DNA of 64,000 bases from an uncultured Actinomycetota bacterium (GCA_964610385.1 CAZSXW010000001.1:84261-148260); one strand, 5' to 3'. Shown: positions 1,558 to 50,832, counted from the first letter of the stretch. Notes: generated from the letters alone by a model not told the origin. Translations and numbers: made by a program.

Positions 1558-1574
1558 AATAGACATAAAAAAAG

Positions 1575-2864: not shown

Positions 2865-2882
2865 TCGAGAGAAAGGAAACAG

Positions 2883-3656
2883 ATGTATACCTGCGGAATC
2901 GATGTTGGCTCGGTATCAACTGAAGCAGTGATACTTGATGGAAAAGATGATAAGATTTTATCTTACGCCATTGCCCCTACCGGCTCCAGCAGTAAAACTG
3001 CTGCAGAAAACGCCTTTAAAGATACTTTGAATAAAGCAAATCTTAAAAGCAAGGACATCAAAGCAATTATCGCCACAGGCTATGGTAGGATAAATATTCC
3101 CTTTGCAGATAAAAATATAACCGAGATTAGCTGCCACGCCCGGGGAGCAATATCTATATTTCCTGACCTTAAAACAGTAATCGATATCGGCGGACAGGAC
3201 AGCAAAGTCATCAAACTTGAAAACGGAAGTCCTATTGACTTTTTAATGAACGACAAATGTGCAGCCGGAACGGGGAGATTCCTGGAAGTCATGGCCAAGG
3301 CCATGGAAATAGACCTTGAGCATTTCGCTCCCATTTTCATCAAAACGGACGGAAAGGTGGATATAACATCGACCTGTACCGTATTTGCCGAATCCGAAAT
3401 AGTCTCACTTATCGGACGGGGAATAGATAAAAATAAGATTATAAAAGGACTCATTTATTCCATAGCAAACAGGATAACTTCAATGGTTGAAAGAATTGGG
3501 CTTGAAGAACCGGTTTGTATGACCGGAGGAGTGGCTAAAAATCTGGGAGTGGTAAAAGCACTAGAAGAAAAACTGGGAGTTAAAATAAATATTCCGGACG
3601 AGCCGCAGATAACCGGTGCACTTGGTGCAGCCTATCTGGCACAGAACCTGCATTAA
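2883..3656 (+). CDS. ATP-dependent [4Fe-4S] activator (archerase, HgdC/BadF-BadG-BcrA-BcrD family)
   Basis: GIDVGSVST, ATGYGR, EISCH, DIGGQDSK, MNDKCAAGTG, STCTVFAESE, GGVAKN. Confidence 0.92.
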   Translation: MYTCGIDVGSVSTEAVILDGKDDKILSYAIAPTGSSSKTAAENAFKDTLNKANLKSKDIKAIIATGYGRINIPFADKNITEISCHARGAISIFPDLKTVIDIGGQDSKVIKLENGSPIDFLMNDKCAAGTGRFLEVMAKAMEIDLEHFAPIFIKTDGKVDITSTCTVFAESEIVSLIGRGIDKNKIIKGLIYSIANRITSMVERIGLEEPVCMTGGVAKNLGVVKALEEKLGVKINIPDEPQITGALGAAYLAQNLH

Positions 3657-12233: not shown

Positions 12234-13118
12234 TTATTTATAAACAGTTCTATGACTATAATCAATTCTGCTCTTATATAATTCCATGATCCTTAAGGTA
12301 ATATTACCGGGAAGTTTTTTCCCAATTACAAACCAGTCGATTTTCCTTACAGGTACCACCCCGGCAACTGAACTGGTTTTGAAAACTTCATCTGCATTTA
12401 TGATATCCCGGTAGTGTATTTTCTTCTCTTTTATCCTTATCATGTTTTCTCTGCATATATCTATCACTACTTCCCTGGTGACACCAGGTAAAATATTTTG
12501 GGTCAGTGGAGGAGTATATACCGAACCTCTTTTTACCAGAAATATATTGCTTGATGCCCCCTCCAGTACCAGCCGGTCCCTGTTCAGAAAAACAGCCTCC
12601 CCTGCATTTTTTTTATGGGCTTCATCCTTTGCAAAAATATTCTCAAAATAGTTGATGAGCTTATGAGAATAGAGACTCCGTCCAACTGACTGCCTTTTTA
12701 TTGAAGAAGAGATGACATTTATACCTTCAATATAATCTTCCTGAGGGTAGGGTCTTAGTTTTTCGGCAATTATTATAAGGTTTGGACTACTGCTGCTCGA
12801 AAAATGAAAATCTCCGTTATAAATTCCCCTGGTCACGATAATCTTTATATAAGAATCGCACACGATCAGGTTATTCTTTTTCACCGTTTTAATTACGGCA
12901 TCCTTTAAATATTCATTATCAAAAGTGACCCTGTATTTTAATACCTTAAGCGAGTGAAACAACCTCTGAATATGAGCATCAAGCATAAACAGATTACCTT
13001 TGAAACCCCTAAGGGTCTCATACAGCCCGTCGCCATATAAAAATCCTCTGTCCTTTACCGATATTCTTGCTTTTGGTTCGATGACCAGTTTTCCGTTAAT
13101 AAAAACGTATTTAAACAT
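12234..13118 (-). CDS. pabC: Class IV PLP aminotransferase family, probable aminodeoxychorismate lyase
   Basis: DRGFLYGDGLYET, HK (PLP lysine), EGASSNIF, ILPGVTR; last gene of the pabA-pabB operon. Confidence 0.75.
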   Translation of the reverse strand: MFKYVFINGKLVIEPKARISVKDRGFLYGDGLYETLRGFKGNLFMLDAHIQRLFHSLKVLKYRVTFDNEYLKDAVIKTVKKNNLIVCDSYIKIIVTRGIYNGDFHFSSSSSPNLIIIAEKLRPYPQEDYIEGINVISSSIKRQSVGRSLYSHKLINYFENIFAKDEAHKKNAGEAVFLNRDRLVLEGASSNIFLVKRGSVYTPPLTQNILPGVTREVVIDICRENMIRIKEKKIHYRDIINADEVFKTSSVAGVVPVRKIDWFVIGKKLPGNITLRIMELYKSRIDYSHRTVYK

Positions 13119-13140
13119 AGCAGTCTGCCCCGCAGAAATC

Positions 13141-14739
13141 TTATAAAAATTTTTTTAAATTCCCTGCCATAAAAAATCTTAGAGTATCTTTAAGTGCGAT
13201 ACTCTTATCCAGGGTCTCATTATATTCTTCTTCCGGAACAGAATCCTCAACTATTCCCCCGCCTACATTATAATAGAACTTATTTTTCTTTATAACAAAT
13301 GTCCTTATAACAATATTTATATCCATACCGCAGTCGACACCTATATAGCCCAGTGAACCTGTATAAACATTCCTGGCGACCGTTTCCAGCTCATCGATTA
13401 TCTCCATCGCCCTTATCTTGGGCGCACCCGTTATTGAACCCCCGGGAAATGACGCCTTTATAATATCAGAGATATCCACCCGCTTTTTTACCCTGCCTGT
13501 CACCGTCGAAACGGAATGAAAAACGGTCGAATATTTTTCAACTACAGCATGCTCTGCTACTTTTACTGTACCGTAATAGCAGAATTTTCCCAGATCATTT
13601 CGCTCCAGATCCACAATCATATTAAGTTCTGCCCTGTCCTTCATGCTCCCTTTTAGTTCCGTTATTTTTCCCCTGTCACTCAAGTCGTCCTTTCCTCTGG
13701 GCCTGGTCCCTTTTATAGGCCTGGTCTCTATGACATCTCCCTTCAGAAGTAAAAACCTTTCCGGTGATGAACTGCCTATACTGAAGCCGTCAAAATCCAT
13801 AAAAGCAGAAAATGGCGCAGCGTTCTTTTCCCTCAGTATATAATAAAGGTCTATCGGTTCTACCGGCAGGTCTGCTTCGAACCTCTGCGTGAAGTTTGCC
13901 TGATATATATCGCCGTTATGGATGTATTCCTTGGCTTTCATGACTCTTCTTATGTAATCGGGCTTCTTGATATTTGATTTAAACTTTATACTGGATATCT
14001 TTTTTTTATAGTATTTTTCTATTATATTTTTTCTGATATCATCCGGCTTTTCAAAACCACTTAAAATGTCCTCTAATTCCTTACCAACCTTTTCTGTAAG
14101 TTCACCGTCCTTCACACCAGGATCCACATAATCATCTTTTAAGAAGGCCGCTTCAAAAACACCACTGCTTTCCTTTTCTTTTCCCTTTACCAGAAAATTT
14201 CTAATAAAGTACCACCTTTCCTCGATATGACTGTATGCAAGTACTCTGTCGTAATAATTAAGATAAAACACGGGAAGACCGATATCATCCAAAACACTTT
14301 GAGGAAGTTTTTCAATATAGTTCTTAAGGTCATAAGAAAAATAACCGGTAAAGCCGCCCCTGAATTCAGGCAGCTTTTCCTCCCGGCCTTTAGCTGCTTT
14401 CTCCACTCTACCGCCGCTTATATATACAAGCTTTATATTCCCTATTTCACTGCCGGAAGGGCTCAGGGTATAATTTTTTATATTCTCCTTTAGAAATGAA
14501 AGAGGATGCTGGTATGAATAATACCTTATACCTACTGGGCCAGCGGCAAACTCATTCTTATACCCCAGGCTTTTTATTACAAATTTAGGATCCCAGGCAA
14601 TATAAGAAAATTTGGAATATTTATTAGGGTATAGACTGCTGTCTAAAAAACAAAGGTGATTTTTATCCTTTAGACTATACGCCGTATCCTGAGGCATCAT
14701 TTTCAGGTCGATGGCCGAGATTGTAGAGAGGATGTTCAT
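13141..14739 (-). CDS. pabB: Aminodeoxychorismate synthase component I
   Basis: GDIYQAN, SSPERF, PIKGT (PabB-type rather than TrpE PIAGT), MIVDLERNDLG, FPGGSITGAPK. Confidence 0.85.
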   Translation of the reverse strand: MNILSTISAIDLKMMPQDTAYSLKDKNHLCFLDSSLYPNKYSKFSYIAWDPKFVIKSLGYKNEFAAGPVGIRYYSYQHPLSFLKENIKNYTLSPSGSEIGNIKLVYISGGRVEKAAKGREEKLPEFRGGFTGYFSYDLKNYIEKLPQSVLDDIGLPVFYLNYYDRVLAYSHIEERWYFIRNFLVKGKEKESSGVFEAAFLKDDYVDPGVKDGELTEKVGKELEDILSGFEKPDDIRKNIIEKYYKKKISSIKFKSNIKKPDYIRRVMKAKEYIHNGDIYQANFTQRFEADLPVEPIDLYYILREKNAAPFSAFMDFDGFSIGSSSPERFLLLKGDVIETRPIKGTRPRGKDDLSDRGKITELKGSMKDRAELNMIVDLERNDLGKFCYYGTVKVAEHAVVEKYSTVFHSVSTVTGRVKKRVDISDIIKASFPGGSITGAPKIRAMEIIDELETVARNVYTGSLGYIGVDCGMDINIVIRTFVIKKNKFYYNVGGGIVEDSVPEEEYNETLDKSIALKDTLRFFMAGNLKKFL

Positions 14740-15341
14740 AGGTCAATGAAATTTTTAAGTATTTTCATTCCAACCGGAGTAAGAAAAGACTCGGGGTGAA
14801 ATTGTATCCCTTCCAGCCTGTAATCCTTATGCCTTACTCCCATAACAATACCGTCCTGGGTGTGCGCTGTGACTATAAAGGAGGGAGGGATTGTGTCCTT
14901 TTTTAAAATCAGAGAGTGGTATCTTGCAGCTTCAAAAGGACTTTTAATGCCTTTAAAAATACTTTTACCGTCATGGTATATCATTGAAGTCTTACCATGG
15001 ACAACTACTCCGGAATTTATGACTTCCGCCCCAAATACCTCTCCGATACACTGGTGACCCAGACACACTCCCAGTATAGGTATTTCTCTGTAGAAATGCT
15101 TTATCAGGTCTTTTGAAATACCTGCATCTGAAGGCCGGCCGGGTCCGGGCGAGATGACTATTTTTGACGGCGACATCCTTTCGATCTCCTCAAGACTTAT
15201 CTTATCATTTCTTCTGACTTTTATATTCTCCCCTAAAATCCCCAGAAACTGCACCAGATTAAAAGTGAAGGAATCATAATTGTCTATCATAAGGATATCT
15301 ATTTTTTTGGTTTTTATTTTTGTACTCATATCCATTCCCAT
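14736..15341 (-). CDS. pabA: Glutamine amidotransferase component II (PabA/TrpG)
   Basis: IDNYDSFTFNL, SPGPG, GVCLGHQ, RYHSL, QFHPES; 4-nt overlap with pabB. Confidence 0.88.
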   Translation of the reverse strand: MGMDMSTKIKTKKIDILMIDNYDSFTFNLVQFLGILGENIKVRRNDKISLEEIERMSPSKIVISPGPGRPSDAGISKDLIKHFYREIPILGVCLGHQCIGEVFGAEVINSGVVVHGKTSMIYHDGKSIFKGIKSPFEAARYHSLILKKDTIPPSFIVTAHTQDGIVMGVRHKDYRLEGIQFHPESFLTPVGMKILKNFIDL

Positions 15342-37984: not shown

Positions 37985-38464
37985 ATGGGCCAGAATCTTA
38001 TAGCCTTATTAGGTAAAATCTCAAACAATATTGAAAAAATACTTCATATAAAAACCGATAAAGACAACAATTATAATATTATCGCATCCGGAACTGATAT
38101 AAAAGGCAGAATTTATTCTCCCCACCCTATTAAGATAGAAGGTATTGTAGCAGGAGAAATCATATCAAGAGGAAAACTTGTAATAGGAAGGGAAGGAAAA
38201 GTAAAAGCAAATATCAAAACCAAAAATACGGTAATAGAAGGAAGTTTTATCGGCAACATAATATCAGCAGGAGAAGTTTCAATAACTTCCACCGGTAAAC
38301 TTGAAGGCAATATTATTCAAAGAGATACTTATCTAATAATAAAAGACTGCGGCCTGTTCAAGGGCAATAATATAATTATAGACAATAAGAAAATATTTAG
38401 AATATCCGACAGCGATAAACTCTCAACCATTAGAATAAAACCCAAGAAAATATTAAAATTTTAA
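37985..38464 (+). CDS. Bactofilin (polymer-forming cytoskeletal protein)
   Basis: IIASGTDIKGRI, IKIEGIVAGEI, KLVIGREGKVKANI, VIEGSFIGNI, ITSTGKLEGNI, G.FKG beta-helix repeats. Confidence 0.82.
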   Translation: MGQNLIALLGKISNNIEKILHIKTDKDNNYNIIASGTDIKGRIYSPHPIKIEGIVAGEIISRGKLVIGREGKVKANIKTKNTVIEGSFIGNIISAGEVSITSTGKLEGNIIQRDTYLIIKDCGLFKGNNIIIDNKKIFRISDSDKLSTIRIKPKKILKF

Positions 38465-38523
38465 AAACTTTAATTATATTTTACACGCAAGTTATTTCCG
38501 GAATATAAATTTCCTGTCCTGAA

Positions 38524-39039
38524 TTATAATTTAAGGCTGTCATCTATATCATTAAGCTGGAATTCCTCAAACTCATCTTCTTTCTCTTTTTTATCGGTTT
38601 TGACACTTACTTTTTTCTCTTCACCACTTTTTATTTTGGGTTTTCTCTTACCCATCTTTTTATCCTGACTGATCCTGGTAACCTTTCCGCTGAAAATTCC
38701 TCCCTCATTTATAATCAATGAGTCTGTTTTTATATTACCATCCACCACTCCTGTTTCCGTAATTTCAACTTTATCGGTGCCCTTTAAATTTCCTTCAAAT
38801 TTCCCGACTATTTTGGCACCAACAGTGGTTACATTGGCATTGACAATCCCTTCTTTCTGGATTACCATCTGCCCATCTACTACTAATTCGCCTATAACCT
38901 CACACCCTATCTCTATGGACTGAGAAACATCCAGCTTTCCTTCTATTTTTGCCTTTTTCCCTACAATGGTCAGCAATGTCCTGGATTCTTCCTTATCAAC
39001 AATTCCGCGTTCATCTGAATCCCTGCCTGAAAAAACCAT
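38524..39039 (-). CDS. Bactofilin with charged C-terminal tail
   Basis: TIVGKKAKIEGKL, IGCEVIGEL, IQKEGIVNANV, IVGKFEGNL, ITETGVVDGNI, INEGGIFSG; RBS aggaggg. Confidence 0.88.
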   Translation of the reverse strand: MVFSGRDSDERGIVDKEESRTLLTIVGKKAKIEGKLDVSQSIEIGCEVIGELVVDGQMVIQKEGIVNANVTTVGAKIVGKFEGNLKGTDKVEITETGVVDGNIKTDSLIINEGGIFSGKVTRISQDKKMGKRKPKIKSGEEKKVSVKTDKKEKEDEFEEFQLNDIDDSLKL

Positions 39040-39074
39040 ATTTACCCTCCTTCTAATTTTTTAATATATAGTTA

Positions 39075-39917
39075 TCAGTTCAAACCTGCTACCGTCTTTT
39101 CAATTTGAGAAAACAACTTTATAATATCATCTGATGCTTCCGCCTTTGGATATGATATAAAAACCGGTTCTTTTTTTAAGGATATTGATTTTTGATAGTG
39201 AACTAGATATCTTATCTTCTGATCAAATACAGTTAATCTGCCGCCGTATTTCTCTTTGAGAATATTTATTATTTGCCTGGGCATCTTCTTTCTTTTTTCA
39301 AAAGCATTAATTACAATTCCGGCAATCTTTATCTTAACGTTATATTTCCTTTCCAGGTTTCTAATTATTTTGCTAAGGTAATTAATATCCAGCAGAGAGA
39401 ATAGTTCCGGCTTTATTACCACGATAACTTTATTGGCGTAAATTATTGATGTGGTTGAAAGAAGAGAAAAATTAGGCTGTGAGTCTATCACTATATAATC
39501 ATAATCATCTTTGCTTATATTTTCTTCAAATATATTTTTTACTATTATATTTCTGTATAGTGCTTTATAAATTTTTCTCTCGTTTAAAGCTTTTTTTAAC
39601 AGATAATCCGTCAGGCATTCCTCGATAAGTGAAATGTTGTTGGAAGAAGGCAGTAAATCGATATTATCAGTTATTCTTATAATATAATCCTTAAAATTTA
39701 TATCCTTCCCTTTAAGGTAGTCAATCATAAGATTATCAATATTAACCCTGCTGTCATGCGATACTTTATTAAAAGCCTGAACAAGATTAATCTGCGGGTC
39801 AAAATCAATAAAAAGAACCTTTTTATCCCTTTTTTCCGCTAAATACCAGCCATAGTTATAGCAAATAGTCGTTTTCCCGGTCCCGCCCTTGGTGTTAAAA
39901 AAGACAACTTTTTCCAT
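39075..39917 (-). CDS. ParA/Soj family ATPase (orphan, no parB)
   Basis: Deviant Walker A KGGTGKTT, IDFDPQ.NL, YIVIDSQP, conserved LPS motif. Confidence 0.88.
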   Translation of the reverse strand: MEKVVFFNTKGGTGKTTICYNYGWYLAEKRDKKVLFIDFDPQINLVQAFNKVSHDSRVNIDNLMIDYLKGKDINFKDYIIRITDNIDLLPSSNNISLIEECLTDYLLKKALNERKIYKALYRNIIVKNIFEENISKDDYDYIVIDSQPNFSLLSTTSIIYANKVIVVIKPELFSLLDINYLSKIIRNLERKYNVKIKIAGIVINAFEKRKKMPRQIINILKEKYGGRLTVFDQKIRYLVHYQKSISLKKEPVFISYPKAEASDDIIKLFSQIEKTVAGLN

Positions 39918-40183: not shown

Positions 40184-41635
40184 TCAGCCCTTCAAGACAC
40201 CAAGGGGCCTCAGTCTTATCGCCTTTTTAGATATCCCGGCATGGTGAGTTATATCTACTACTCTGCTCACATCTTTATAGGCCAGGGGAGCTTCTTCTGC
40301 GAGTCCGGACATACTCCCGGCCATTACTACTATTCCTTTCTTATTGAAAAGCTCCTTTTTAAGTTCACTTCCCTGTACTTTTTTCTTTGCTTTAGTCCTG
40401 CTCATAAGTCTTCCTGCACCATGGCAGGTAGAGCCGAAGCTTTCAGTCATCGCCCTCTCAGTACCCAGAAGGATAAAGGAATAGCGACCCATATCTCCCG
40501 GGATTATTACCGGCTGGCCGATATCCTTATATTTTTTACAGATTTCCTTATGCCCCGGCGGATAGGACCGGGTAGCACCTTTTCTGTGGACACAGACTTT
40601 CATCATACTGCCGTCAACATTGTGCTCTTCCATCTTGGCTATATTATGAGATACATCATAAATAACATTAAGACCCAATTTCTCTGAGGACTTGCCGAAA
40701 AATCTTTCAAAGGATTTTCTTACCCAGTGAGAGAGGCAGTGTCTGTTTGTCATTGCATAATTTACCGCACAGATCATAGCACTATAATACCTCTTCCCCT
40801 CGGGGGAAGACAGGGGCGTACAGGCCAGTTGCCGGTCTGCTAATTTTATTCCATACTTTAAAGCGGATTGCTGCATGACCTTTATATAATCACTGCATAT
40901 CTGATGACCAAGTCCCCTTGAACCGGAATGGATCATCACCGTTATCTGACCCTTCTCCAGACCAAACAGGTTTGCTGCTTCACTGTCATAGATCTCATCT
41001 ACAACCTGTATCTCCAAAAAATGATTTCCCGACCCCAGAGTCCCCACCTGGTTTATACCTCTTTCAATGGCACGGTTGCTTATAAAATCAGGGTTAGCTC
41101 CTTCCATACAGCCATTTTCTTCTATACAGTAATCATCTCCCTCCTGGCCGTATCCATTTCTAATAGCCCACGGGACACCTTCTTTTAGTAATTTCTTCAA
41201 CTGATCTCTGGACAAGCTTATCCTGCCCTTTCTTCCCAGACCTTTTGGTATGTTGAAGGACAGGATACCCATTATATCTTTAAGATGCTTCTCGATATCA
41301 CTGATATAAAGACCAGTCCTCATAATCCTTACCCCGCAGGATATATCAAAACCAACACCGCCGGGTGAAATGACTCCTTCTTCCTCATCAAAAGCAGCTA
41401 CTCCTCCAATAGGGAACCCATATCCATAGTGAATATCCGGCATAGCATACGAAGCCTTAAGTATGCCGGGGAGAGTAGAAACGTTTACTACCTGATCGAT
41501 AGTCTTTTCATTTACGGCATGGTCCAAAAGCTCCCTGTCAGCAAAGATTATTCCTGGGACCCTCATTCCATACCTGTCATCCTTTTCTACTTCCCATTTG
41601 TAATCATTTATTTTTTTAATATTGTAATCAGAAAT
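40184..41635 (-). CDS. rtcB: RNA-splicing/repair ligase RtcB; likely start at ATT 41635 (first ATG at 41566)
   Basis: MPDIHYGYGFPIGG, DISCG, GTLGSGNHFLE, HSGSRG, HNIAK, HRKGAT, CHGAGR; the frame stays open upstream through KKINDYKWEV to an RBS GAGGAG. Confidence 0.93.
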   Translation of the reverse strand: MSDYNIKKINDYKWEVEKDDRYGMRVPGIIFADRELLDHAVNEKTIDQVVNVSTLPGILKASYAMPDIHYGYGFPIGGVAAFDEEEGVISPGGVGFDISCGVRIMRTGLYISDIEKHLKDIMGILSFNIPKGLGRKGRISLSRDQLKKLLKEGVPWAIRNGYGQEGDDYCIEENGCMEGANPDFISNRAIERGINQVGTLGSGNHFLEIQVVDEIYDSEAANLFGLEKGQITVMIHSGSRGLGHQICSDYIKVMQQSALKYGIKLADRQLACTPLSSPEGKRYYSAMICAVNYAMTNRHCLSHWVRKSFERFFGKSSEKLGLNVIYDVSHNIAKMEEHNVDGSMMKVCVHRKGATRSYPPGHKEICKKYKDIGQPVIIPGDMGRYSFILLGTERAMTESFGSTCHGAGRLMSRTKAKKKVQGSELKKELFNKKGIVVMAGSMSGLAEEAPLAYKDVSRVVDITHHAGISKKAIRLRPLGVLKG

Positions 41636-41652
41636 AATAGACTCCTCTCTTC

Positions 41653-42144
41653 TCAGACATCAAATATGACCCTTCCTTTCCAATTGTAGTTTCTCCCGTC
41701 TTTTTTTACTTCCAGCATATGGTAGGTCGGTGCTTTAATGGCCGTTTTTATGATATGCATGTCGGGGTCTATTTTTTCACCGGACACTTCAGCTGACAGC
41801 TCTATACCGCCGTTCTTTTTGTGGATACTGCTTACCTCAAATCCTTCAAACAAGATATTATCAACTTCATGCCAGTAAAGCAGTTTTTCAAGCCACGATA
41901 TCAGGAGATCTTCAAAACTCCCACTTTTCACGCTGATCTTCACCTTTCTTTTTTCTAAAGGTCTGATTTTCCCCAAATCACTAATAATAGAAAACATCCC
42001 CTCGCCGGCATTCTCAAATAATTCCCCTATTGTATTTCCGTAGAATTCCAGTCCTATATCGGAAACGTGCTCGATATATTTATATTTTTTAATTACTCTC
42101 CCGGGTTTCATCTTAATTCGTAAAAATCTCACAATACACGCCAA
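41653..42144 (-). CDS. Archease (RtcB activator); exact start uncertain
   Basis: YIEHVSDIG, LFENAG, EDLLISWL, IKAPTYH, C-terminal VIFDV; immediately upstream of rtcB. Confidence 0.88.
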   Translation of the reverse strand: MACIVRFLRIKMKPGRVIKKYKYIEHVSDIGLEFYGNTIGELFENAGEGMFSIISDLGKIRPLEKRKVKISVKSGSFEDLLISWLEKLLYWHEVDNILFEGFEVSSIHKKNGGIELSAEVSGEKIDPDMHIIKTAIKAPTYHMLEVKKDGRNYNWKGRVIFDV

Positions 42145-42252: not shown

Positions 42253-43063
42253 CCTGTTCTATTTAAAGATCAGAATCAAATTAAATAAAGTACTATAAAA
42301 TTGTTTAATAAATCGATTTTTAGTGCTAAAATCTTTCGAAATAGAATAGACCTACGACACTTAATATAATTTGAGGAGGAATACAATATGTCACAATTCG
42401 GAAAACCTAAAGGTTTTTTAGGGAGATTGCTGGCAAAAGGTATGGCATGGGGTCATAGTGATTTTTATAAAAATACTGCCAAGACGCTTGACCTAAAATA
42501 TAATGACAAATATCTTGAAATAGGATTTGGTTCCGGAATGTTTATAAAAAGATATGCTTCACATGCCGCAAAAATAGCCGGGCTGGATTATTCAAAGGAT
42601 ATGGTAGAACTGGCAAGCAGTATCAATAAAGATCTTATCAAATCAGGAAAAGTTGAATTTAAGCAAGGAAATGTATTATCTATACCCTGGCAAAATAATG
42701 AATTTTCCGCAGTCGTCGTAATTGAAACTTCTTTCTTCTGGCCAGAGCCGGTAGCAGCACTCAAGGAAATATATAGGGTATTATCTCCGGGAGGCCGTCT
42801 GGTAATTGAAATGGCATATAATAAAGATGACGGGCTGGACCATACTAAGGACATTAAAAAAATAAATTTGACTCTATACAGCACTCCCGAAATGGAAAAA
42901 ATCTTAAAAGAATCAGGCTTTAGTAAAATAGTCATAGATTATTATAAAGCTTTATGGTTGCCGTTCAAAGGTTATATTGTCCCAAAAGGTATGATCGTCA
43001 AAGCTTTCAAATGAGCAGTAATTTGATTGAAAATAAATATTATTTTGATTAAAATAGAACAGG
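42253..43063. repeat. 12-bp inverted repeat pair (CCTGTTCTATTT at 42253-42264; AAATAGAACAGG at 43052-43063) flanking the methyltransferase gene
   Basis: Exact 12-mer reverse-complement match, extended imperfectly by A7-T(T)A on both sides. Confidence 0.55.
42388..43014 (+). CDS. Class I SAM-dependent methyltransferase
   Basis: LEIGFGSG, GLDYSKDM, GNVLSIPW, EIYRVLSPGGRL; RBS gaggagg. Confidence 0.88.
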   Translation: MSQFGKPKGFLGRLLAKGMAWGHSDFYKNTAKTLDLKYNDKYLEIGFGSGMFIKRYASHAAKIAGLDYSKDMVELASSINKDLIKSGKVEFKQGNVLSIPWQNNEFSAVVVIETSFFWPEPVAALKEIYRVLSPGGRLVIEMAYNKDDGLDHTKDIKKINLTLYSTPEMEKILKESGFSKIVIDYYKALWLPFKGYIVPKGMIVKAFK

Positions 43064-43217
43064 TTATTTTTTTAAATTTTTCCTATGTATAAATCTAGAC
43101 ATAACAAAAACAAAGGAAATTTAAATCCTACCAAAGTTTTAGAAATACTTCCCCACCCCGGAACCGACCTTCTAAATAATCAAATCACAGGCAAACCTAT
43201 ATTTCAAAGGAGCTTAT

Positions 43218-44108
43218 ATGAACAATAAAAAAACTACTGTTATACCAGTTATCAGCATCCAGGGTCAGAACTGCACCGGCTGTGTCACTTCAATCCTGTG
43301 CTCCGAATTTCCAGCAATCAAAAATGTACTGCTGCAGGATATAATACCAGGTTTCAAGCTTGATTTCGTATTCCATCCCAATATCATGACTGCAAGCGGA
43401 AACCGTGCCATGGAAATACTTGAAAACTCTTCAAAGGAAAAGGGCTATGTCTTGATCATTGACGGTGCTATCCCCACCAATGACAATGGAGTCCACTGCG
43501 TCACAGGTGAAAAGGACGGTAAAAAATATACCATACTGGAAGAGACTTTAAAACTGGCACCTGATGCACTTATGGTAATCGCTCTGGGGACATGCGCGGC
43601 ATTCGGCGGAATTGCAGCCGCAAACCCGAATCCGACAGGAGCACAAAGTGTGGGAGACATCTTACAAGCCAACAAGATCAAAACTCCACTTATAAACATC
43701 CCCGGCTGTCCTCCTCATCCGGACTGGCTTTTCGGCACTATAGAGGAAGTGCTGGTAAAAGGATTGGAAAATGTACAGCTGGATGATTTAAAAAGGCCAA
43801 AGACTTTTTACGGACAGCTGATCCACGAAAATTGCCCCAACAGAGCTTATTTCGATGAAGGTAAATTTGCCAAAAAATTAGGGGATGAAGGGTGCCTTTA
43901 TGAACTGGGATGCAAGGGGTCCATAACCTATGCCGACTGCCCCAAAAGACAATGGAACAGCAAAACCAACTGGGTCATCGGATGCGGAGCTCCATGCAGC
44001 GGCTGTACATCGCCCGAATACCCGGATCTTTTGGGAGATCTCTATGAAAAGATCATTGACGTAGAAGTCCCTGTTAATAAGAAAAAGACCGGGATCCAAA
44101 AAAAATAA
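43218..44108 (+). CDS. [NiFe]-hydrogenase small subunit without Tat leader
   Basis: CTGC, GTCAAFGG, GCPPHP (proximal); HENC...CLYELGCKG (distal); DC...PCSGC (medial); RBS aaggag; no RRxFxK. Confidence 0.92.
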   Translation: MNNKKTTVIPVISIQGQNCTGCVTSILCSEFPAIKNVLLQDIIPGFKLDFVFHPNIMTASGNRAMEILENSSKEKGYVLIIDGAIPTNDNGVHCVTGEKDGKKYTILEETLKLAPDALMVIALGTCAAFGGIAAANPNPTGAQSVGDILQANKIKTPLINIPGCPPHPDWLFGTIEEVLVKGLENVQLDDLKRPKTFYGQLIHENCPNRAYFDEGKFAKKLGDEGCLYELGCKGSITYADCPKRQWNSKTNWVIGCGAPCSGCTSPEYPDLLGDLYEKIIDVEVPVNKKKTGIQKK

Positions 44109-44129
44109 TTATTTTAGAAAGGTGAAATC

Positions 44130-45680
44130 GTGAAAAAAATCGTAATACACCCCATAACCAGAATTGAAGGCCATTTAAAAGTAGAAGCCGTGGTGGACAA
44201 TGGCGAAATAAAAGATGCCAGTATAAGCGGTACCATGTTCAGAGGTATAGAAATAATGTTAAAGGGCAGAGACCCCAGGGATGCGGTTATGATCACTCAG
44301 AGAATATGCGGTGTATGCCCGGAGCCTCATGCCATAGCATCAGTCAGTGCAGTAGAAGAATATGCGGGACTCAAAGACAAGATCCCCGTAAATGGGATTC
44401 TTTTAAGAAACCTGATCCTTGGTACCAGAAGTATTGCCGACCATATACTGCATTTCTATATTCTAAGCGGGCTGGATTATATAGACCCGGCACAGGTCAT
44501 GGAATATAACGGTGCAAATCAAGATTTAAACACTCTAAAATTTTTTCTCCAACAGGGATATTCAAAACCATTTCTCCCCAGAGATGAAATAGACTACAGA
44601 CTTGATACAAAAACCACAAATATTGTAGTAGGCCATTATATCAAAGCAATGGATGTCTATAGAAAAGCACAGCAGGCAGCCACTCTTTTCGGCGGAAAAT
44701 GGCCCCACGACGCTGCTGTCGTGTCCGGTGGCGTATCGCAGCGGCTTACAGCCGACAGGATTACTGAATTTATATGGAGACTGGAAGAGATAGCAGATTT
44801 TGTCAAAAATTATTATCTGCCTGATGTCATTGCAGTAGCTAAGGCTTACAATGATTATCTCGAGATAGGAAAAGGGTGCAGCAACCTGCTGGCATATGAT
44901 TCATACCAGACCAGTTCCAACGGCAAGTACAATGACTATCTTTTTAAAGGCGGTCTGATAAATAATATCGATAAATACAGTAAAATAAACATAGATAATA
45001 TAACTGAAGATATTACCCACAGCTGGTATCAGGAGTCCGAACCCCTATATCCGGGCGAAGGAAAGACCGAGCCGACAGCAGATAAAAAAAAGGCGTACTC
45101 ATGGGTAAAATCTCCAAGATATGGCAGCATGGTTTATGAAGTAGGGCCTCTGGCAAGCGTCCTTACCACTTATTTTGGAAAAAAAGATCCCCATATTAAA
45201 AATATGGTCGACAGTTCACTATCCGAAATAGGTACAGACGTTTCCAGTATGTACTCAGTAGCAGGAAGACATCTTGCCAGGGTACTTTCTGCGAATATAT
45301 TAGCGGACCAGCTGTCAGTATGGGCGCGTGAACTTAAAGTGGAAGAACCTACCACAGTAGAATATAATCCACCTTCTGATGGGAAAGGTATTGGGCTCTG
45401 TGCAGCACCGAGAGGAGCTCTGGGGCACTGGCTGAATGTAGAAGACGGCAGGATTTCAAACTACCAGGTGATTACTCCCACTGCATGGAATGCATCTCCA
45501 AAGGATAAAGACGGACAGCCCGGCCCCTATGAGCAGGCATTAATAGGTATCAAAGTAAAGGAAAGTCAAAGTCCTGTAGAAATTTTAAGAGTCATCAGAA
45601 GCTTTGACCCCTGTACCGCATGTGCGGTGCATCTTGTTACATCAAAGAAAGACTTAATAGGTAAATATAAAGTAGTCTGA
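44130..45680 (+). CDS. [NiFe]-hydrogenase large subunit (group 1-like, Cys not Sec)
   Basis: PITRIEGH, L1 QRICGVC, APRGALGHW, L2 DPCTACAVH plus a 15-aa cleavable tail. Confidence 0.95.
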   Translation: MKKIVIHPITRIEGHLKVEAVVDNGEIKDASISGTMFRGIEIMLKGRDPRDAVMITQRICGVCPEPHAIASVSAVEEYAGLKDKIPVNGILLRNLILGTRSIADHILHFYILSGLDYIDPAQVMEYNGANQDLNTLKFFLQQGYSKPFLPRDEIDYRLDTKTTNIVVGHYIKAMDVYRKAQQAATLFGGKWPHDAAVVSGGVSQRLTADRITEFIWRLEEIADFVKNYYLPDVIAVAKAYNDYLEIGKGCSNLLAYDSYQTSSNGKYNDYLFKGGLINNIDKYSKINIDNITEDITHSWYQESEPLYPGEGKTEPTADKKKAYSWVKSPRYGSMVYEVGPLASVLTTYFGKKDPHIKNMVDSSLSEIGTDVSSMYSVAGRHLARVLSANILADQLSVWARELKVEEPTTVEYNPPSDGKGIGLCAAPRGALGHWLNVEDGRISNYQVITPTAWNASPKDKDGQPGPYEQALIGIKVKESQSPVEILRVIRSFDPCTACAVHLVTSKKDLIGKYKVV

Positions 45681-45710
45681 AAATTTAAAAAAGCTTTTGC
45701 AGGAGGATTT

Positions 45711-46388
45711 ATGATATTAACTGAATTTAAACCGTTAGAGGAACTGATTGAGAAACTGGAAGGTGAGAAAAAGATATTCATCATGGGCTGCGGCGGCTGC
45801 CCCGAAGGTGCGGATACCGGCGGAAAAGAAGTGCTGGCAGATTTTAAAGAAAAACTTGAAAAAGAAGGAAAAACTGTCACCGGAGTAATGGAAATTGACT
45901 TTCTGTGTCAGAAAGCGCTGATACGATCCAGGATAAAACCAAGATCTTCCCAGCTAAATGATTCAGATTCTGTACTGGTGTTCTCATGCGGGATCGGAGT
46001 CCAGGCAGTATCAGCAGTCATAGACAAGACCTGTCACCCCGCCCTGAACACAACTACTTTCGGAGGCATAACCGGAATGTGGCAGGGTACCGAAAGATGC
46101 GACACTTGCAGCGACTGCATACTGGACTACACCGGCGGAATATGTCCTTACACAGCCTGTCCTAAAAAATTGTTGAACGGCGCCTGCGCTGGACAGAGTA
46201 ATGATAAATGCGAGACAGATCCGGAAAGAGAATGCGGATGGGTTCAGATCTACAACAGTTTGAAAAGAACAGGAAACCTGAACAGGTTACAAAAGTTTAT
46301 ACCTCCCAGAGATTATACAAAAAAATTGCCCCCATCAGCTTTAAGAAAAAGCAGACTATGGGCACTTGACGAGGAGGATGCGGTATGA
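45711..46388 (+). CDS. metV: Methylene-THF reductase Fe-S subunit (MetV-like)
   Basis: GCGGC, DFLC, SCGIGVQ and C-terminal RCDTCSDC...GGICPYTACPKKLLNGAC...KC...ECGW Cys cluster. Confidence 0.88.
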   Translation: MILTEFKPLEELIEKLEGEKKIFIMGCGGCPEGADTGGKEVLADFKEKLEKEGKTVTGVMEIDFLCQKALIRSRIKPRSSQLNDSDSVLVFSCGIGVQAVSAVIDKTCHPALNTTTFGGITGMWQGTERCDTCSDCILDYTGGICPYTACPKKLLNGACAGQSNDKCETDPERECGWVQIYNSLKRTGNLNRLQKFIPPRDYTKKLPPSALRKSRLWALDEEDAV

Positions 46389-47287
46389 CTACAGAAAAAA
46401 TAAAAGAATCAAAATTTGAGAAAACACTGAACAGCGGAAAATTTGCAGTCACCTGTGAAATAGGCCCTCCTAAAGGTGCAGAGATCGAAGAAATCGAAGA
46501 GGCAGCAGAATATTTAAGAGATGTTGCAGATGGGATAAATATAACAGACCTACAGAGTTCTGTAATGAGGCTGGGATCTCTTACCACCTGTTACTTTATA
46601 AAACAAATGGGTCTGGATCCTATATTTCAGATAACATGCAGAGACAGGAACAGGCTGGCACTGCAGTCCGATCTCTTAAGCGCCAGCGTATTAGGAATAA
46701 GAAATGTACTGGCTCTTACCGGCGACTACACCACTATCGGCGATCATCCACAAGCTGAACCCGTATTCGATCTTGACTCGGTTCAACTCCTATGGGCCAT
46801 TAAAAAATTGGAAGAAGGATTTGACCTTTCAGAAAAGGAACTCACCCAAAAACCTTCCTTTTTTAAGGGTGCGGTAGTAAATCCAGGTGCGGATACAGAA
46901 GCATCTTACGAACTTCAGATAATAAAAATGAAGAAGAAAATAGACCAGGGAGCACAGTTTTTCCAGACCCAGGCAATATATGATGCTGAGGTTTTTAAAA
47001 GGTTCATGGAAAGGATACGCAGTGAAAACATCGATATCCCAGTCCTGGCAGGAATAATTCTATTAAAATCCGAGAAAATGGCCAATTATATGAACAAATT
47101 CGTACCGGGTGTGTTTGTACCGGAATCAATAATAAAAAAGATGGAATCGACTGATGACAAGGTCTCTATGTGCATAGAAATCGCATCCGGACTCATAGAG
47201 GAAGTAAAGCCATATTGTGCCGGAGTTCATATTCAGGCTCTGGGGTGGGAAAAACATGTACCTGCGGTAGTCAAAGACATTAGATAA
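46385..47287 (+). CDS. metF: Methylenetetrahydrofolate reductase catalytic subunit
   Basis: VTCEIGPPKG, INITD, ITCRDRNR, LALTGD, FFQTQ; ATGA overlap with metV. Confidence 0.92.
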   Translation: MTTEKIKESKFEKTLNSGKFAVTCEIGPPKGAEIEEIEEAAEYLRDVADGINITDLQSSVMRLGSLTTCYFIKQMGLDPIFQITCRDRNRLALQSDLLSASVLGIRNVLALTGDYTTIGDHPQAEPVFDLDSVQLLWAIKKLEEGFDLSEKELTQKPSFFKGAVVNPGADTEASYELQIIKMKKKIDQGAQFFQTQAIYDAEVFKRFMERIRSENIDIPVLAGIILLKSEKMANYMNKFVPGVFVPESIIKKMESTDDKVSMCIEIASGLIEEVKPYCAGVHIQALGWEKHVPAVVKDIR

Positions 47288-47291
47288 CACA

Positions 47292-47840
47292 GTGAAAAAT
47301 CCAAAAAACATCAAAACTGTAATACTAGGTATCGGTAATATTCTGCTTGGAGATGAAGGTGTAGGAGTTCACACCGTTAAAGTACTCCAAAAAGAAAAGC
47401 TTCCTCCTGATGTGCTGGTAATAGACGGTTCAACTGCAGGATTCAGGTTGTTTCCAATATTTGATGAATATAAAAAAAGCAGATTCATAATAATCGATGC
47501 CCTTAGAATAGAAAAATCTTCAGAAGAGACTTCCCAAATTAAAAATAAAAAATCTTCTTCCCATGAAGGTATATTTGTCATACCCCTGGACGATTTTTAC
47601 CATACAGGCGGTTTTAATCATCCGGGTGAAGGTCTTATCTCATTTCATCAGACTTCACTGATTGACGTGCTGAATTTATATTATCTAGCATATAAGGTAA
47701 AAATCAGGGGATATTTGATCGGTATTGATATATCCGAAAGTATAGACGGCGGCCTACCATTTTCTATGAATCTATCCCGCAAAATAGAACAAAAGATTCC
47801 CACCATCATTGATCTAATTAAAAAACATATAAACCCGTAA
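47292..47840 (+). CDS. Hydrogenase maturation endopeptidase (HyaD/HybD family)
   Basis: LGIGNILLGDEGVG, IDG, IIIDA, SFHQ. Confidence 0.88.
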   Translation: MKNPKNIKTVILGIGNILLGDEGVGVHTVKVLQKEKLPPDVLVIDGSTAGFRLFPIFDEYKKSRFIIIDALRIEKSSEETSQIKNKKSSSHEGIFVIPLDDFYHTGGFNHPGEGLISFHQTSLIDVLNLYYLAYKVKIRGYLIGIDISESIDGGLPFSMNLSRKIEQKIPTIIDLIKKHINP

Positions 47841-50415: not shown

Positions 50416-50832
50416 TTATATCTCTTCAGCAAGTGTGGATCTGGAAAGAGAAATATGCTTTACGCCCTTTATTGATTTTAACTTGGATTCCAATTGATAG
50501 ATTTCGCTTATTTTCCCCCTGACTACTATCACTTCCAGGCACACCCTTGGATCAAGGTGGATGTGCTGTGTTGAGATAATGGTCTTGTGATAATCATGCT
50601 GGATATCCACCAGATTATCCATAAGCTCCCTCCTGTGATGGTCAAAAACCAGTACTATTGCACCTGCTGCATTTTTATCCGTATTCAGCCACTGCTCTTC
50701 AACAAATTCCTTCCTGATTAGATCCCGCAGTGCTTCAGAGCGATTGGTGTAATTTTTTGATTTGATATAACTGTCAAACTTTTTTAACAGATCGCTCTCA
50801 ATTGAAACCCCAAATCTTTTAGTATCATCCAT
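50416..50832 (-). CDS. nikR: Nickel-responsive regulator
   Basis: RFGVSI ribbon, NRSEALRDLIR, DHH, QHDYH, HIHLD..CLEV. Confidence 0.93.
   Translation of the reverse strand: MDDTKRFGVSIESDLLKKFDSYIKSKNYTNRSEALRDLIRKEFVEEQWLNTDKNAAGAIVLVFDHHRRELMDNLVDIQHDYHKTIISTQHIHLDPRVCLEVIVVRGKISEIYQLESKLKSIKGVKHISLSRSTLAEEI

Follow-up and report, generated by a model that had tools for sequence, protein, structure and literature searches.

Five co-oriented genes on the plus strand of a 64,000-nucleotide stretch of DNA from an uncultured Actinomycetota bacterium (the window) encode a [NiFe]-hydrogenase small subunit, its large subunit, MetV, MetF and a maturation protease (hydS-hydL-metV-metF-protease, positions 43218-47840; Table 1). 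Genomic evidence suggests that they probably form one cytoplasmic unit, a soluble H2:methylene-tetrahydrofolate (methylene-THF) oxidoreductase. The proposal builds on the identification of five intact genes, the absence of an export signal or membrane anchor, the presence of the Fe-S cluster ligands, and a clade-specific linkage of the hydrogenase to MetVF. If it is correct, H2 enters the methyl branch of CO2 fixation directly through an uncharacterised enzyme.

Table 1. Features of the hydrogenase-metVF operon, in positions of the window
Feature	Position	Strand	Length	Basis
Candidate sigma-70-like promoter, TTGAAA-17-TAAAAT	43027..43055	+		Best match, 10/12 positions, in the 203-nt intergenic region 5' of the small subunit
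Shine-Dalgarno sequence, AAAGGAG	43206..43212	+		Read from the sequence; ends 5 nt before the small-subunit ATG
[NiFe]-hydrogenase small subunit, group-1-like	43218..44108	+	296 aa	PF01058 and PF14720
[NiFe]-hydrogenase large subunit	44130..45680	+	516 aa	PF00374 at 486 bits; NF033181 at 608 bits (cut-off 600)
MetV, Fe-S/Zn electron-input subunit of MetVF-type reductases	45711..46388	+	225 aa	PF12225, 105 bits
MetF, flavin TIM-barrel catalytic subunit (by family)	46385..47287	+	300 aa	PF02219 positions 1-285 of 287, 141 bits
HybD/HycI-family maturation endopeptidase	47292..47840	+	182 aa	TIGR00072 at 85 bits; PF01750

The open reading frames are spaced, in order, by 21, 30, -4 and 4 nt, as a first-pass annotation of this DNA had reported, and the metF start overlaps the metV stop as ATGA. 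The good ribosome binding site claimed for the small subunit is present, Shine-Dalgarno sequences can also be read 5' of the large subunit, metV and metF, and the protease gene has a weak one only. The best promoter match is a candidate operon promoter; because the upstream region has 22 promoter-like sites where 13.8 ± 3.7 would be expected, no strong enrichment, it is weak evidence. An identical large subunit occurs in two independent read-set assemblies (L089 and L090), and the gene order agrees as far as the contigs reach, the comparison with L089 ending where that contig stops inside metV. Since these independent assemblies agree, the gene order is not an assembly artefact; nor is it unique to one assembly, a possibility the earlier annotation had raised, and the linkage recurs across a clade.

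The large subunit carries the Ni-Fe ligand motifs R58-I-C60-G-V-C63-PEP-H67 and D493-P-C495-TA-C498-AV-H501, and both RICGVCPEPH (58-67) and DPCTACAVH (493-501) are invariant across the large-subunit alignment. After H501 follows a 15-residue C-terminal extension, LVTSKKDLIGKYKVV, that would be cut off by the protease of the operon, which keeps the conserved GDEG, IIDA and FHQ motifs and carries an insertion of ~30 residues in its translation. The top solved-structure matches of the large subunit are periplasmic Desulfovibrio-type [NiFe] and [NiFeSe] enzymes (~360 bits); group 1 structures score 290-365 bits against 214 for Huc of group 2, and structures of Frh, Mvh and the NAD-reducing enzyme score at most 106 bits through an N-terminal match only, the Mvh and Frh chains covering just the N-terminal 120 residues. 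By sequence, the hydrogenase is closest to group 1 and not to groups 2-4. A group 3c, Mvh-type assignment was rejected (the VhuA model, with a cut-off of 800 bits, reaches 94 bits and covers just residues 1-118; MvhA structures score 95-99 bits), as was group 2b, the H2-sensing hydrogenases, on the presence of the extension and protease and the lack of a kinase in the window operon.

The features of group 1 found here are the Ni-Fe ligand motifs, a small subunit with three clusters, and the C-terminal extension with its endopeptidase; the Tat leader and the membrane anchor or cytochrome partner of that group (a C-terminal helix, cytochrome b, c3 or a HybA-type protein) are missing. The best solved-structure match of the small subunit is the D. 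baculatum [NiFeSe] small subunit. Profile searches leave unmatched the N-terminal 36 positions of NF045520 and, in TIGR00391, the first 48 and last 44, and the open reading frame is already at maximum length, with an upstream stop codon blocking extension. Its N-terminus, MNNKKTTVIPV..., aligns with the mature start of periplasmic small subunits: residue 9-10 falls opposite residue 8 in the mature D. baculatum chain and opposite residue 43 in the 317-aa small-subunit chain 2wpn_A. Because the frame cannot be extended and its start aligns to mature periplasmic chains, a Tat leader of ~35 residues is absent, and none of the five operon proteins contains an RR motif, which bears out the claim that no twin-arginine leader is present. 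The small-subunit tail is 33 hydrophilic residues without a transmembrane helix, and the five-gene operon has no cytochrome b or membrane-anchor gene, as the first annotation had noted. The absence of leader, anchor helix and anchor gene supports its prediction of a cytoplasmic, Tat-less, group-1-type hydrogenase.

The small subunit provides ligands for a proximal cluster (C19/C22/C126/C164), a medial cluster (C241/C260/C263) and a His-ligated distal cluster (H203/C206/C226/C232), all kept in 66/66 linked relatives. Position 253, the canonical fourth medial Cys, is Val in the window and Cys256 is present instead; this fourth medial ligand is variable among relatives.

The metV-metF pair appears to encode a MetVF-type methylene-THF reductase, judging from a full-length TIM-barrel protein and an adjacent Cys-rich MetV. 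MetF matches the reductase half of PRK08645 at 237 bits and solved methylene-THF reductases (MTHFRs) at E ~1e-10. In MetV, eleven cysteines (C27, C30, C66, C130, C133, C136, C145, C150, C159, C167 and C175) are invariant in hydrogenase-linked copies, and C93 is kept in 62 of 69. An AF2 model of MetV gives a Rossmann-like N-terminal domain (residues 1-116) and models the Cys-rich C-terminal domain poorly. Two described reductase architectures were considered for the window and rejected, type III (RnfC2-MetVF) because rnfC2 is absent from the operon and no Rnf or NADH-module family occurs among window ORFs of at least 180 aa, and type IV (HdrCBA-MvhD-MetVF) because tblastn with the L091 HdrA-like and FlpD proteins found neither hdrCBA nor mvhD in the 64-kb window.

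To place the operon among its relatives, 80 species-representative genomes with the closest large subunits were surveyed, comprising 68 loci of a Tat-less clade and 12 Tat-bearing sister loci. The Tat-less clade spans 68 uncultured bacterial species in about ten phyla. The gene-neighbourhood search that the first-pass annotation had proposed finds MetV adjoining the hydrogenase in 57/59 testable loci of this clade and MetF in 47/48; neither is beside the hydrogenase in any of the 12 sister loci. The Tat leader is absent in all 68 linked members, and an RRxFL-type leader is found in 11/11 unlinked sister loci where the small subunit was found, nine of these having a tail of ~75 aa with a hydrophobic helix, against ~31 aa in the linked ones. 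Linkage to metVF and the loss of both Tat leader and C-terminal anchor thus match exactly, and in a neighbour-joining tree of large subunits the linked and unlinked sequences form complementary clans. This linkage is beyond chance. Large subunit and MetV show the same steps in identity (at least 65% within the Actinomycetota group, ~52-57% to Chloroflexota), and their pairwise identities correlate (r = 0.68); this apparent co-divergence counts for functional pairing.

Gene order within the clade varies. The placement of the protease after metVF, on which the claim that metVF sit inside the operon was based, holds in the window but is confined to the close Actinomycetota subclade containing it; elsewhere in the clade, where detected, the protease lies between large subunit and metV. 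In Anaerolineae MetV is upstream of hydS, most Planctomycetota and Dehalococcoidia loci have four or five of these genes in a tblastn survey, and Planctomycetota and others have a colinear fhs-folD-hydS-hydL-(protease)-metV-metF operon. Within methyl-branch operons of several phyla, the hydrogenase stands between folD and metV, and fhs and folD are near the cluster in L092. That the order varies and the neighbours stay argues for selection on the association and not for a frozen accident. In the 64-kb window itself the search found no fhs, folD or hyp homologues, and no CODH/ACS-type families appear among its scanned ORFs of at least 180 aa.

We hypothesize that the [NiFe] site of the large subunit, matured by the protease, would split H2, and that electrons would run through the proximal, medial and His-ligated distal clusters of the small subunit to the Cys-rich MetV, which would replace the usual group 1 cytochrome or membrane anchor. 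MetV would pass them to the MetF flavin for reduction of 5,10-methylene-THF to 5-methyl-THF in the Wood-Ljungdahl methyl branch. The earlier proposal of an H2-driven methylene-THF reductase stands, on comparative genomics, as to the association with MetVF; we infer the activity, a physical complex, direct transfer from distal cluster to MetV, the physiological direction and the lack of a further partner. Standard potentials imply that electron transfer from H2 (-414 mV) to methylene-THF (-200 mV) would yield about -41 kJ/mol under standard conditions. With H2 at a sediment-like ~1 Pa, E(H+/H2) would rise to ~ -266 mV and ~ -13 kJ/mol would be left, so the step should still run where H2 cannot reduce NAD+ (-320 mV), in keeping with the subsurface lineages in which the cluster occurs. 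Against the proposal, a soluble uncoupled reaction would lose up to 41 kJ/mol at high H2, a loss that energy-limited acetogens usually avoid, and no hydS/hydL-metV fusion was found among 88 loci. Purified MetVF enzymes also take reduced ferredoxin in vitro (PMC8760232).

An unlikely but tenable alternative places the hydrogenase and MetVF in a larger complex that may bifurcate electrons, or makes them dependent on a diffusible carrier; a flavoprotein of HdrA/MvhD type, with its gene at another site in the genome, would split the electrons from H2. On the model of Mvh-Hdr in methanogens and HdrCBA-MvhD-MetVF in Moorella, methylene-THF could then accept electrons at high potential and ferredoxin at low potential, recovering energy otherwise lost, and a hexameric Hdr-MetVF complex is known from Moorella. 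Some relatives favour this arrangement: in Anaerolineae and a 'delta proteobacterium' MAG (L021, L045 and L026), MetV-hydS-hydL is immediately preceded by HdrA-like and FlpD (MvhD) genes, and L091 combines an HdrA-like/FlpD/FrhB-like block and hyp genes with a GltD-like-FlpD gene flanked on each side by a MetVF pair, which makes a larger complex plausible at those loci. Such Hdr-type neighbours occur at only about 5-9 of the 80 loci, and linked loci with at least 65% large-subunit identity, the window included, yield just these five genes on the strand concerned (tblastn, excluding part of the L014 upstream flank). Pfam scans of ORFs of at least 180 aa and tblastn at E 1e-3 with the L091 HdrA-like and FlpD proteins found no Hdr, MvhD (FlpD), RnfC-type or NADH-module genes in the operon or the 64-kb window. 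The first-pass description of a system without Hdr or Rnf is therefore borne out within the window only, and some relatives do carry HdrA-like and MvhD genes immediately upstream.

Less probable still is a reversed flow, in which methyl-THF, supplied by acetate oxidation or by methyl or methoxy compounds, is oxidised and H2 released in syntrophy. Desulfovibrio-type [NiFeSe] enzymes, which are good H2 producers, are among the closest solved relatives, the lineages that carry the cluster are ones typically met in methanogenic or sulfidic sediments, and a Nernst estimate suggests feasibility at a high methyl-THF/methylene-THF ratio with H2 at about 1 Pa or less. Standard ratios, however, require H2 below ~1e-7 atm, group 1 enzymes are classically uptake enzymes, and the colinear fhs-folD-hyd-metVF operons allow either direction. 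Co-regulation alone, or a HupUV-like H2 sensor of C1 metabolism with no electron flow to MetVF, seems very improbable. Sensor hydrogenases are likewise cytoplasmic and Tat-less, which counts for a sensor, and Dehalococcoidia versions of the cluster have a histidine kinase between metV and metF plus two response regulators; kinases adjoin the cluster only in these Chloroflexota variants, and the window operon has none. To our knowledge sensor hydrogenases have neither a large-subunit C-terminal extension nor a dedicated protease, both retained here, and the sequence places the enzyme in group 1, not group 2b. Moreover, a heterodimer in the cytoplasm that has a full relay of three clusters must pass its electrons to some acceptor, MetV is the sole redox protein always present, and linkage is near 100% over about ten phyla with simultaneous loss of Tat leader and anchor.

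The first-pass annotation knew of no description of this architecture, but its adjacency is already mentioned: a 2024 study of Great Salt Lake Ca. Bipolaricaulia MAGs (PMC11287216) reports, in one sentence on two OTUs, a group 1a HysAB (HydDB) beside MetVF and infers that the hydrogenase supplies electrons for methylene-THF reduction. Two survey loci (L066 and L070) are Bipolaricaulia-type members of the Tat-less clade. The part of that paper dealing with this adjacency does not analyse the loss of Tat leader or anchor, the spread across phyla or the variation in operon structure. We found no characterisation of a hydrogenase-MetVF enzyme in the literature, and the scheme of type I-IV reductases has no hydrogenase type.

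Both subunits best match the group 1 (HydDB 1a) 'Hys'-type periplasmic hydrogenases of Desulfovibrio and Desulfomicrobium, with which they share the Ni-Fe motifs, three clusters with a His-ligated distal one, the C-terminal extension and a HybD-type protease. Unlike those enzymes, the window hydrogenase has no Tat leader, C-terminal anchor or cytochrome, has Val at the canonical fourth medial Cys (253) with a Cys at 256, and is partnered by metV and metF. Known MetVF reductases comprise type II of C. ljungdahlii and T. kivui, type III (RnfC2-MetVF) of A. woodii and type IV (HdrCBA-MvhD-MetVF) of M. thermoacetica and S. ovata (PMC8760232). The window system resembles them in its TIM-barrel MetF and Cys-rich MetV, translationally coupled genes, predicted methyl-branch role and modular build, in which MetVF is joined by a lineage-specific electron-input module (PMC8760232). 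Here that module would be a [NiFe]-hydrogenase heterodimer in place of RnfC2, Hdr/MvhD or free ferredoxin, whereas none of the four published types takes H2 directly.

Sporomusa ovata membranes carry out H2-dependent methylene-THF reduction via a group-1-type [NiFe] (Hup) hydrogenase (PMC9430772), so H2 is the ultimate donor there, as is predicted for the window. Hup is Tat-exported, periplasmic and cytochrome b-bound, and its electrons pass through quinone to Hdr-MetVF with energy conserved, whereas the window system would, by prediction, be soluble, cytoplasmic and free of any membrane step. The group 3c MvhAGD-HdrABC system of methanogens differs in hydrogenase lineage, in the MvhD and HdrA that the window does not encode, and in its acceptor, a heterodisulfide instead of methylene-THF; it is nevertheless comparable in tying a cytoplasmic [NiFe]-hydrogenase to a C1-pathway reductase, and some relatives of the window operon carry MvhD/HdrA-like genes.

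The hydrogenase operon comprises five co-oriented genes encoding the small and large subunits of a [NiFe]-hydrogenase (hydS and hydL), the MetV and MetF proteins of a MetVF methylene-THF reductase, and a maturation protease. The genes are spaced by 21, 30, -4, and 4 nt (junctions at 44108/44130, 45680/45711, 46385-46388, and 47287/47292), and the layout described in the first-pass annotation, with the protease after metF, is borne out in every detail. Each of the first four genes (hydS, hydL, metV, and metF) has a Shine-Dalgarno sequence ahead of it, and metV and metF overlap in an ATGA. HydL contains the motifs RICGVCPEPH and DPCTACAVH, the latter followed by a 15-residue tail that is the substrate of the operon's own HybD/HycI-family protease, encoded, as the first-pass annotation says, downstream of metVF. 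Consensus scans of the operon for internal promoters and terminators give no more matches than the shuffled expectation. The sole forward-strand terminator-like hairpin (8-bp, GC-rich, TGTACCGCATGTGCGGTGCA) has a poor T-tract and encodes the CTACAVH nickel-ligand motif within hydL, and is probably a coding coincidence. The gene order is not unique to this assembly: an identical HydL occurs in two independent assemblies with the same order to each contig's limit (one stops within metV), and matches at 88, 78, 68, and 65% identity all retain the order hydS-hydL-metV-metF-protease. GCA_964578625.1 and GCA_028717265.1 are among the close relatives that share this order.

Features of the hydrogenase operon and of the surrounding window (window positions)
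Feature	Position (strand)	Length	Families and description
2-Hydroxyacyl-CoA dehydratase with activator	400-3656 (+)		Two HGD-D subunits and a BcrAD/BadFG ATPase
GH10 xylanase	9994-12228 (+)	744 aa	Two CBM9 modules
Three-gene set	12234-15341 (-)		Class IV aminotransferase (ADC-lyase-like), chorismate-binding enzyme, glutamine amidotransferase
Bactofilin genes	37985-39917		Two divergent genes adjoining a ParA/MinD-like ATPase
RtcB RNA ligase and archease pair	40184-42144 (-)		Directly upstream of the operon, opposite strand
Five-gene operon	43218-47840		Five ORFs in one orientation
hydS, [NiFe]-hydrogenase small subunit		296 aa	PF01058 and PF14720 (Pfam/NCBIfam)
HydS residues 253-259	43974-43994		Medial-cluster region
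hydL, large subunit		516 aa	PF00374; NF033181, 608 bits (cut-off 600)
Terminator-like hairpin	45612-45631 (+)		Within hydL
metV		225 aa	PF12225
metF		300 aa	PF02219, full length
Maturation protease		182 aa	HybD/HycI family, TIGR00072
NikR-family nickel-responsive regulator	50416-50832 (-)		2.6 kb downstream of the operon

The best matches of HydS and HydL are periplasmic group 1 enzymes of the Desulfovibrio/Desulfomicrobium type (HydL about 360 bits against 1h2a, 5jsu, and 4u9h; HydS 230 bits against 1cc1). Similarity to Mvh, Frh, and NAD-reducing enzymes is limited to the first ~120 residues of HydL, and an Mvh-like (group 3c) identity was ruled out by family and structure searches. The HydS N-terminus (MNNKKTTVIPVISIQGQNCTGC) is of the mature type, with residue 9 lining up with residue 8 of mature 1cc1, and no upstream extension of the ORF is possible. 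HydS has no counterpart to the stretch of 36-48 positions that opens the NCBIfam small-subunit models (the Tat leader), or to the closing 44 positions of TIGR00391 (the anchor), in agreement with the lack of a twin-arginine leader noted in the first-pass annotation. None of the five operon proteins has an RR motif, making hitch-hiking export unlikely, and the hydrogenase is predicted from these signals to be cytoplasmic. The enzyme thus has the catalytic and cofactor features of group 1 hydrogenases and lacks the Tat leader and membrane or cytochrome partner, which suggests that the cluster functions as a MetVF reductase fitted with a new input module; annotating it as a periplasmic uptake hydrogenase would be wrong.

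All three iron-sulfur clusters of HydS have their ligands, at C19/C22/C126/C164 (proximal), C241/C260/C263 (medial), and H203/C206/C226/C232 (distal, His-ligated), and the electron relay is predicted to be complete and to end at the protein surface without a classical acceptor. At the canonical fourth cysteine of the medial cluster (position 253), the window protein and most of its Actinomycetota relatives have a valine; the residue is a cysteine in 44 of 59 other MetVF-linked members and 9 of 10 Tat-bearing relatives. A cysteine lies three residues further on in the window protein (Cys256), and its medial cluster may be a [3Fe-4S] cluster or a [4Fe-4S] cluster with a shifted ligand.

Close relatives of HydL (65-97% identity) come from metagenome-assembled genomes (MAGs) labelled Actinomycetota, and below them identity falls to about 52% (Chloroflexota, Poribacteria, and others). 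The same drop is seen for MetV, whose close relatives carry the label Candidatus Humimicrobiia. A 51% match is arranged hydS-hydL-protease-metV-(histidine kinase)-metF-RR-RR (RR, response regulator). A HydL profile scan of one genome per species in GTDB r232 retrieved 80 loci, which were screened with the five window proteins. A Tat-less clade accounts for 68 of these, all from MAGs: 36 Chloroflexota, 11 Planctomycetota, 9 Actinomycetota, 2 Spirochaetota, single loci labelled Poribacteria, Aerophobetes, Fraserbacteria, Bipolaricaulia, and Omnitrophota, and a few whose labels are doubtful. The linkage of metV/metF to a group 1 hydrogenase recurs throughout this clade, as the first-pass annotation would lead one to expect: MetV lies beside the hydrogenase on the same strand in 57 of the 59 loci whose flanks reach at least 1.5 kb (the exceptions being a truncated contig and a locus with MetV divergent directly upstream), and MetF lies within 5 kb downstream in 47 of the 48 with at least 4 kb. 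MetVF is absent from all 12 remaining loci (~45% identity or less; Desulfuromonadales, Ignavibacteriales, Gemmatimonadota, and others). A canonical Tat leader is present in 11 of the 11 unlinked loci where the small subunit was found, and nine unlinked small subunits carry a C-terminal tail of ~75 residues with a hydrophobic helix, compared with ~31 residues in linked members. A neighbor-joining tree of HydL falls into two complementary clans, one of linked and one of unlinked sequences, which fits a single event that stripped a group 1 enzyme of export and anchoring and brought in MetVF.

Nine unlinked loci, the nearest Tat-bearing hydrogenases (L062, L068, L074, L078, L081, L082, L084, L086, and L088; Desulfuromonadales, Ignavibacteriales, Gemmatimonadota, and others), have an unusual order in which the large subunit precedes the small subunit, with the protease, where detected, between them (L082 and L086). 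Their small subunits are 181-370 aa as called, at least 312 aa in the eight complete ORFs (that of L074 runs off the end of the locus), and have a C-terminal helix where complete.

MetV and MetF have the sequence features of a MetVF reductase, and partners of types III and IV are absent within the window. Eleven cysteines are invariant in MetV, compatible with its reported Fe-S/Zn content (PMC8760232). An AF2 model of MetV (pLDDT 78) gave no Foldseek match in the PDB at E <= 0.001, with only generic Rossmann-like similarity at residues 1-116, and no solved MetV structure was found. Gene fusions between the hydrogenase and MetV or MetF (Rosetta-stone) were absent from 88 loci. Anaerolineae carry MetV ahead of hydS, which shows that the constant neighbor is MetV rather than MetF. 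No homologues of Hyp, Hdr, FlpD, Fhs, or FolD were found in the 64-kb window. In Planctomycetota (L055, L060, L063, L064, and L072) and in L052, the order fhs-folD-hydS-hydL-(protease)-metV-metF is colinear; folD is directly upstream in L038 and L046, and fhs, folD, and thyX are close by in L092. In these lineages, the hydrogenase sits inserted in a methyl-branch operon.

Operon variants are common. At many loci (L014, L021, L026, L031, L040, L045, L055, L058, L083, and L091), MetVF occurs as two pairs that differ in sequence type (~50-60% and ~36-45% identity to the window), and either type may adjoin the hydrogenase. Tandem MetV-MetV-MetF occurs in L017, L022, and L037. Many Chloroflexota versions (Dehalococcoidia-type L007/L008, L016, L091, and L092; e.g., L092:11993-15637) have a histidine kinase between metV and metF, with cNMP-binding or GAF plus HisKA and HATPase domains, and two single-domain response regulators after metF. 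This pattern matches one reported in the deep-sea Chloroflexi cell DscP3 as 'phoBR flanking metF_1' (PMC5736913).

Elsewhere in the window, the position of the NikR-family regulator is kept in close relatives (its RHH and NikR_C families are Pfam assignments from the neighborhood tables of relatives L001 and L090), and that of the RtcB/archease pair is kept at 88, 78, and 68% HydL identity (L001, L003, and L005). The bactofilin arrangement is kept in L003. The three-gene set looks like pabC-pabB-pabA for p-aminobenzoate, a folate precursor. The dehydratase with its activator suggests amino-acid or hydroxy-acid fermentation, and the xylanase indicates polysaccharide degradation by the host organism.

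The best-supported reading of these sequences is that HydSL-MetVF would be a soluble H2:methylene-THF oxidoreductase, and at the genomic level the interpretation offered by the first-pass annotation is supported. From the genes present, the signals of location, the cofactor ligands, and the linkage, all of them observed, we infer contact, activity, and direction: electrons would leave the [NiFe] site by way of the three small-subunit clusters, enter the MetV clusters, and finally reach methylene-THF by way of the MetF flavin. The quoted potentials (-414 and -200 mV) give an energy yield of about -41 kJ/mol at standard state, of which, by our own calculation, about -13 kJ/mol is left at 1 Pa H2. 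At that pressure NAD+ is no longer reducible by H2, which would account for the hard-wiring of H2 to the methylene-THF step in energy-starved subsurface lineages.

HydSL and MetVF could belong to a larger, possibly bifurcating complex. Genes for HdrA-like, FlpD(MvhD), and MetV proteins precede hydS and hydL, in that order, in Anaerolineae and one 'delta proteobacterium' MAG (L021:1-7600, L045:1977-9554, and L026:1-9554; MetF follows MetV in L026 only), and L091 combines Hdr-like, hyp, and hydSL genes with two MetVF pairs and a GltD-like-MvhD protein. In the first three loci, a group-1-type hydrogenase appears to take Mvh's place in Mvh-Hdr complexes, making these a candidate new bifurcating assembly. 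No HdrA-like or MvhD gene occurs within the 64-kb window, and the earlier suggestion of a route without Hdr or Rnf stands for the window only; at those other loci a larger complex is plausible. Operation in reverse, with methyl-THF oxidized to H2 in syntrophy, would need very low H2 to be feasible. The kinases of the Chloroflexota variants suggest instead an H2 sensor, or co-regulation only; this alternative is opposed by the retained HydL extension and protease, by the group 1 affinity of the hydrogenase, and by the lack of a kinase in the window.

Taken together, we hypothesize that HydSL-MetVF is a fifth, uncharacterized type of methylene-THF reductase, a soluble four-subunit enzyme in which a group 1 hydrogenase was internalized once, losing its Tat leader and anchor and recruiting MetV as a third subunit. 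The enzyme would have spread across ~10 phyla of mostly subsurface bacteria as the main entry of H2 to the methyl branch at very low H2, and the HdrA/MvhD lineages would have elaborated it into a new hydrogenase-driven bifurcating complex. We give this joint reading an even chance of being correct.

The physiological electron donor of MetVF is a long-standing open question of Wood-Ljungdahl pathway (WLP) bioenergetics, with four recognized partner types, none using H2 directly. If true, a dedicated cytoplasmic hydrogenase would be a fifth solution, and group 1 [NiFe]-hydrogenases could no longer be taken, as a rule, to be exported respiratory enzymes; annotation in the HydDB style now labels such enzymes 'group 1a, periplasmic uptake'. 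Metabolic models would change for abundant uncultured sediment and subsurface lineages (Dehalococcoidia, Anaerolineae, Planctomycetota, Humimicrobiia-like Actinomycetota, and Bipolaricaulia), and the five-gene cluster is a compact target for direct biochemistry.

The first-pass annotation knew of no description of this architecture. In the available excerpts of the full-text literature searched, the sole mention found of hydrogenase-MetVF adjacency is one sentence from 2024 on a HydDB group 1a HysAB adjacent to MetVF in Great Salt Lake Bipolaricaulia (PMC11287216); the adjacency has thus been noted in passing, and these excerpts yielded no characterization and no description of Tat or anchor loss, clade structure, phylogenetic breadth, or operon variants. 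For WLP-bearing Actinobacteria, marine Chloroflexi, and Oman Acetothermia, published work reports Hdr-MvhD-MetVF instead. Acetogen methylene-THF reductases fall into four types, MetF alone, MetVF, RnfC2-MetVF, and HdrCBA-MvhD-MetVF, none of which is hydrogenase-linked (PMC8760232), whereas MetVF in the window lies beside a [NiFe]-hydrogenase. H2-dependent methylene-THF reduction has been demonstrated in Sporomusa ovata, by a route that runs from a Tat-exported, cytochrome-b-bound hydrogenase through quinone to Hdr-MetVF (PMC9430772), unlike the hydrogenase of the window, which is predicted to be cytoplasmic.
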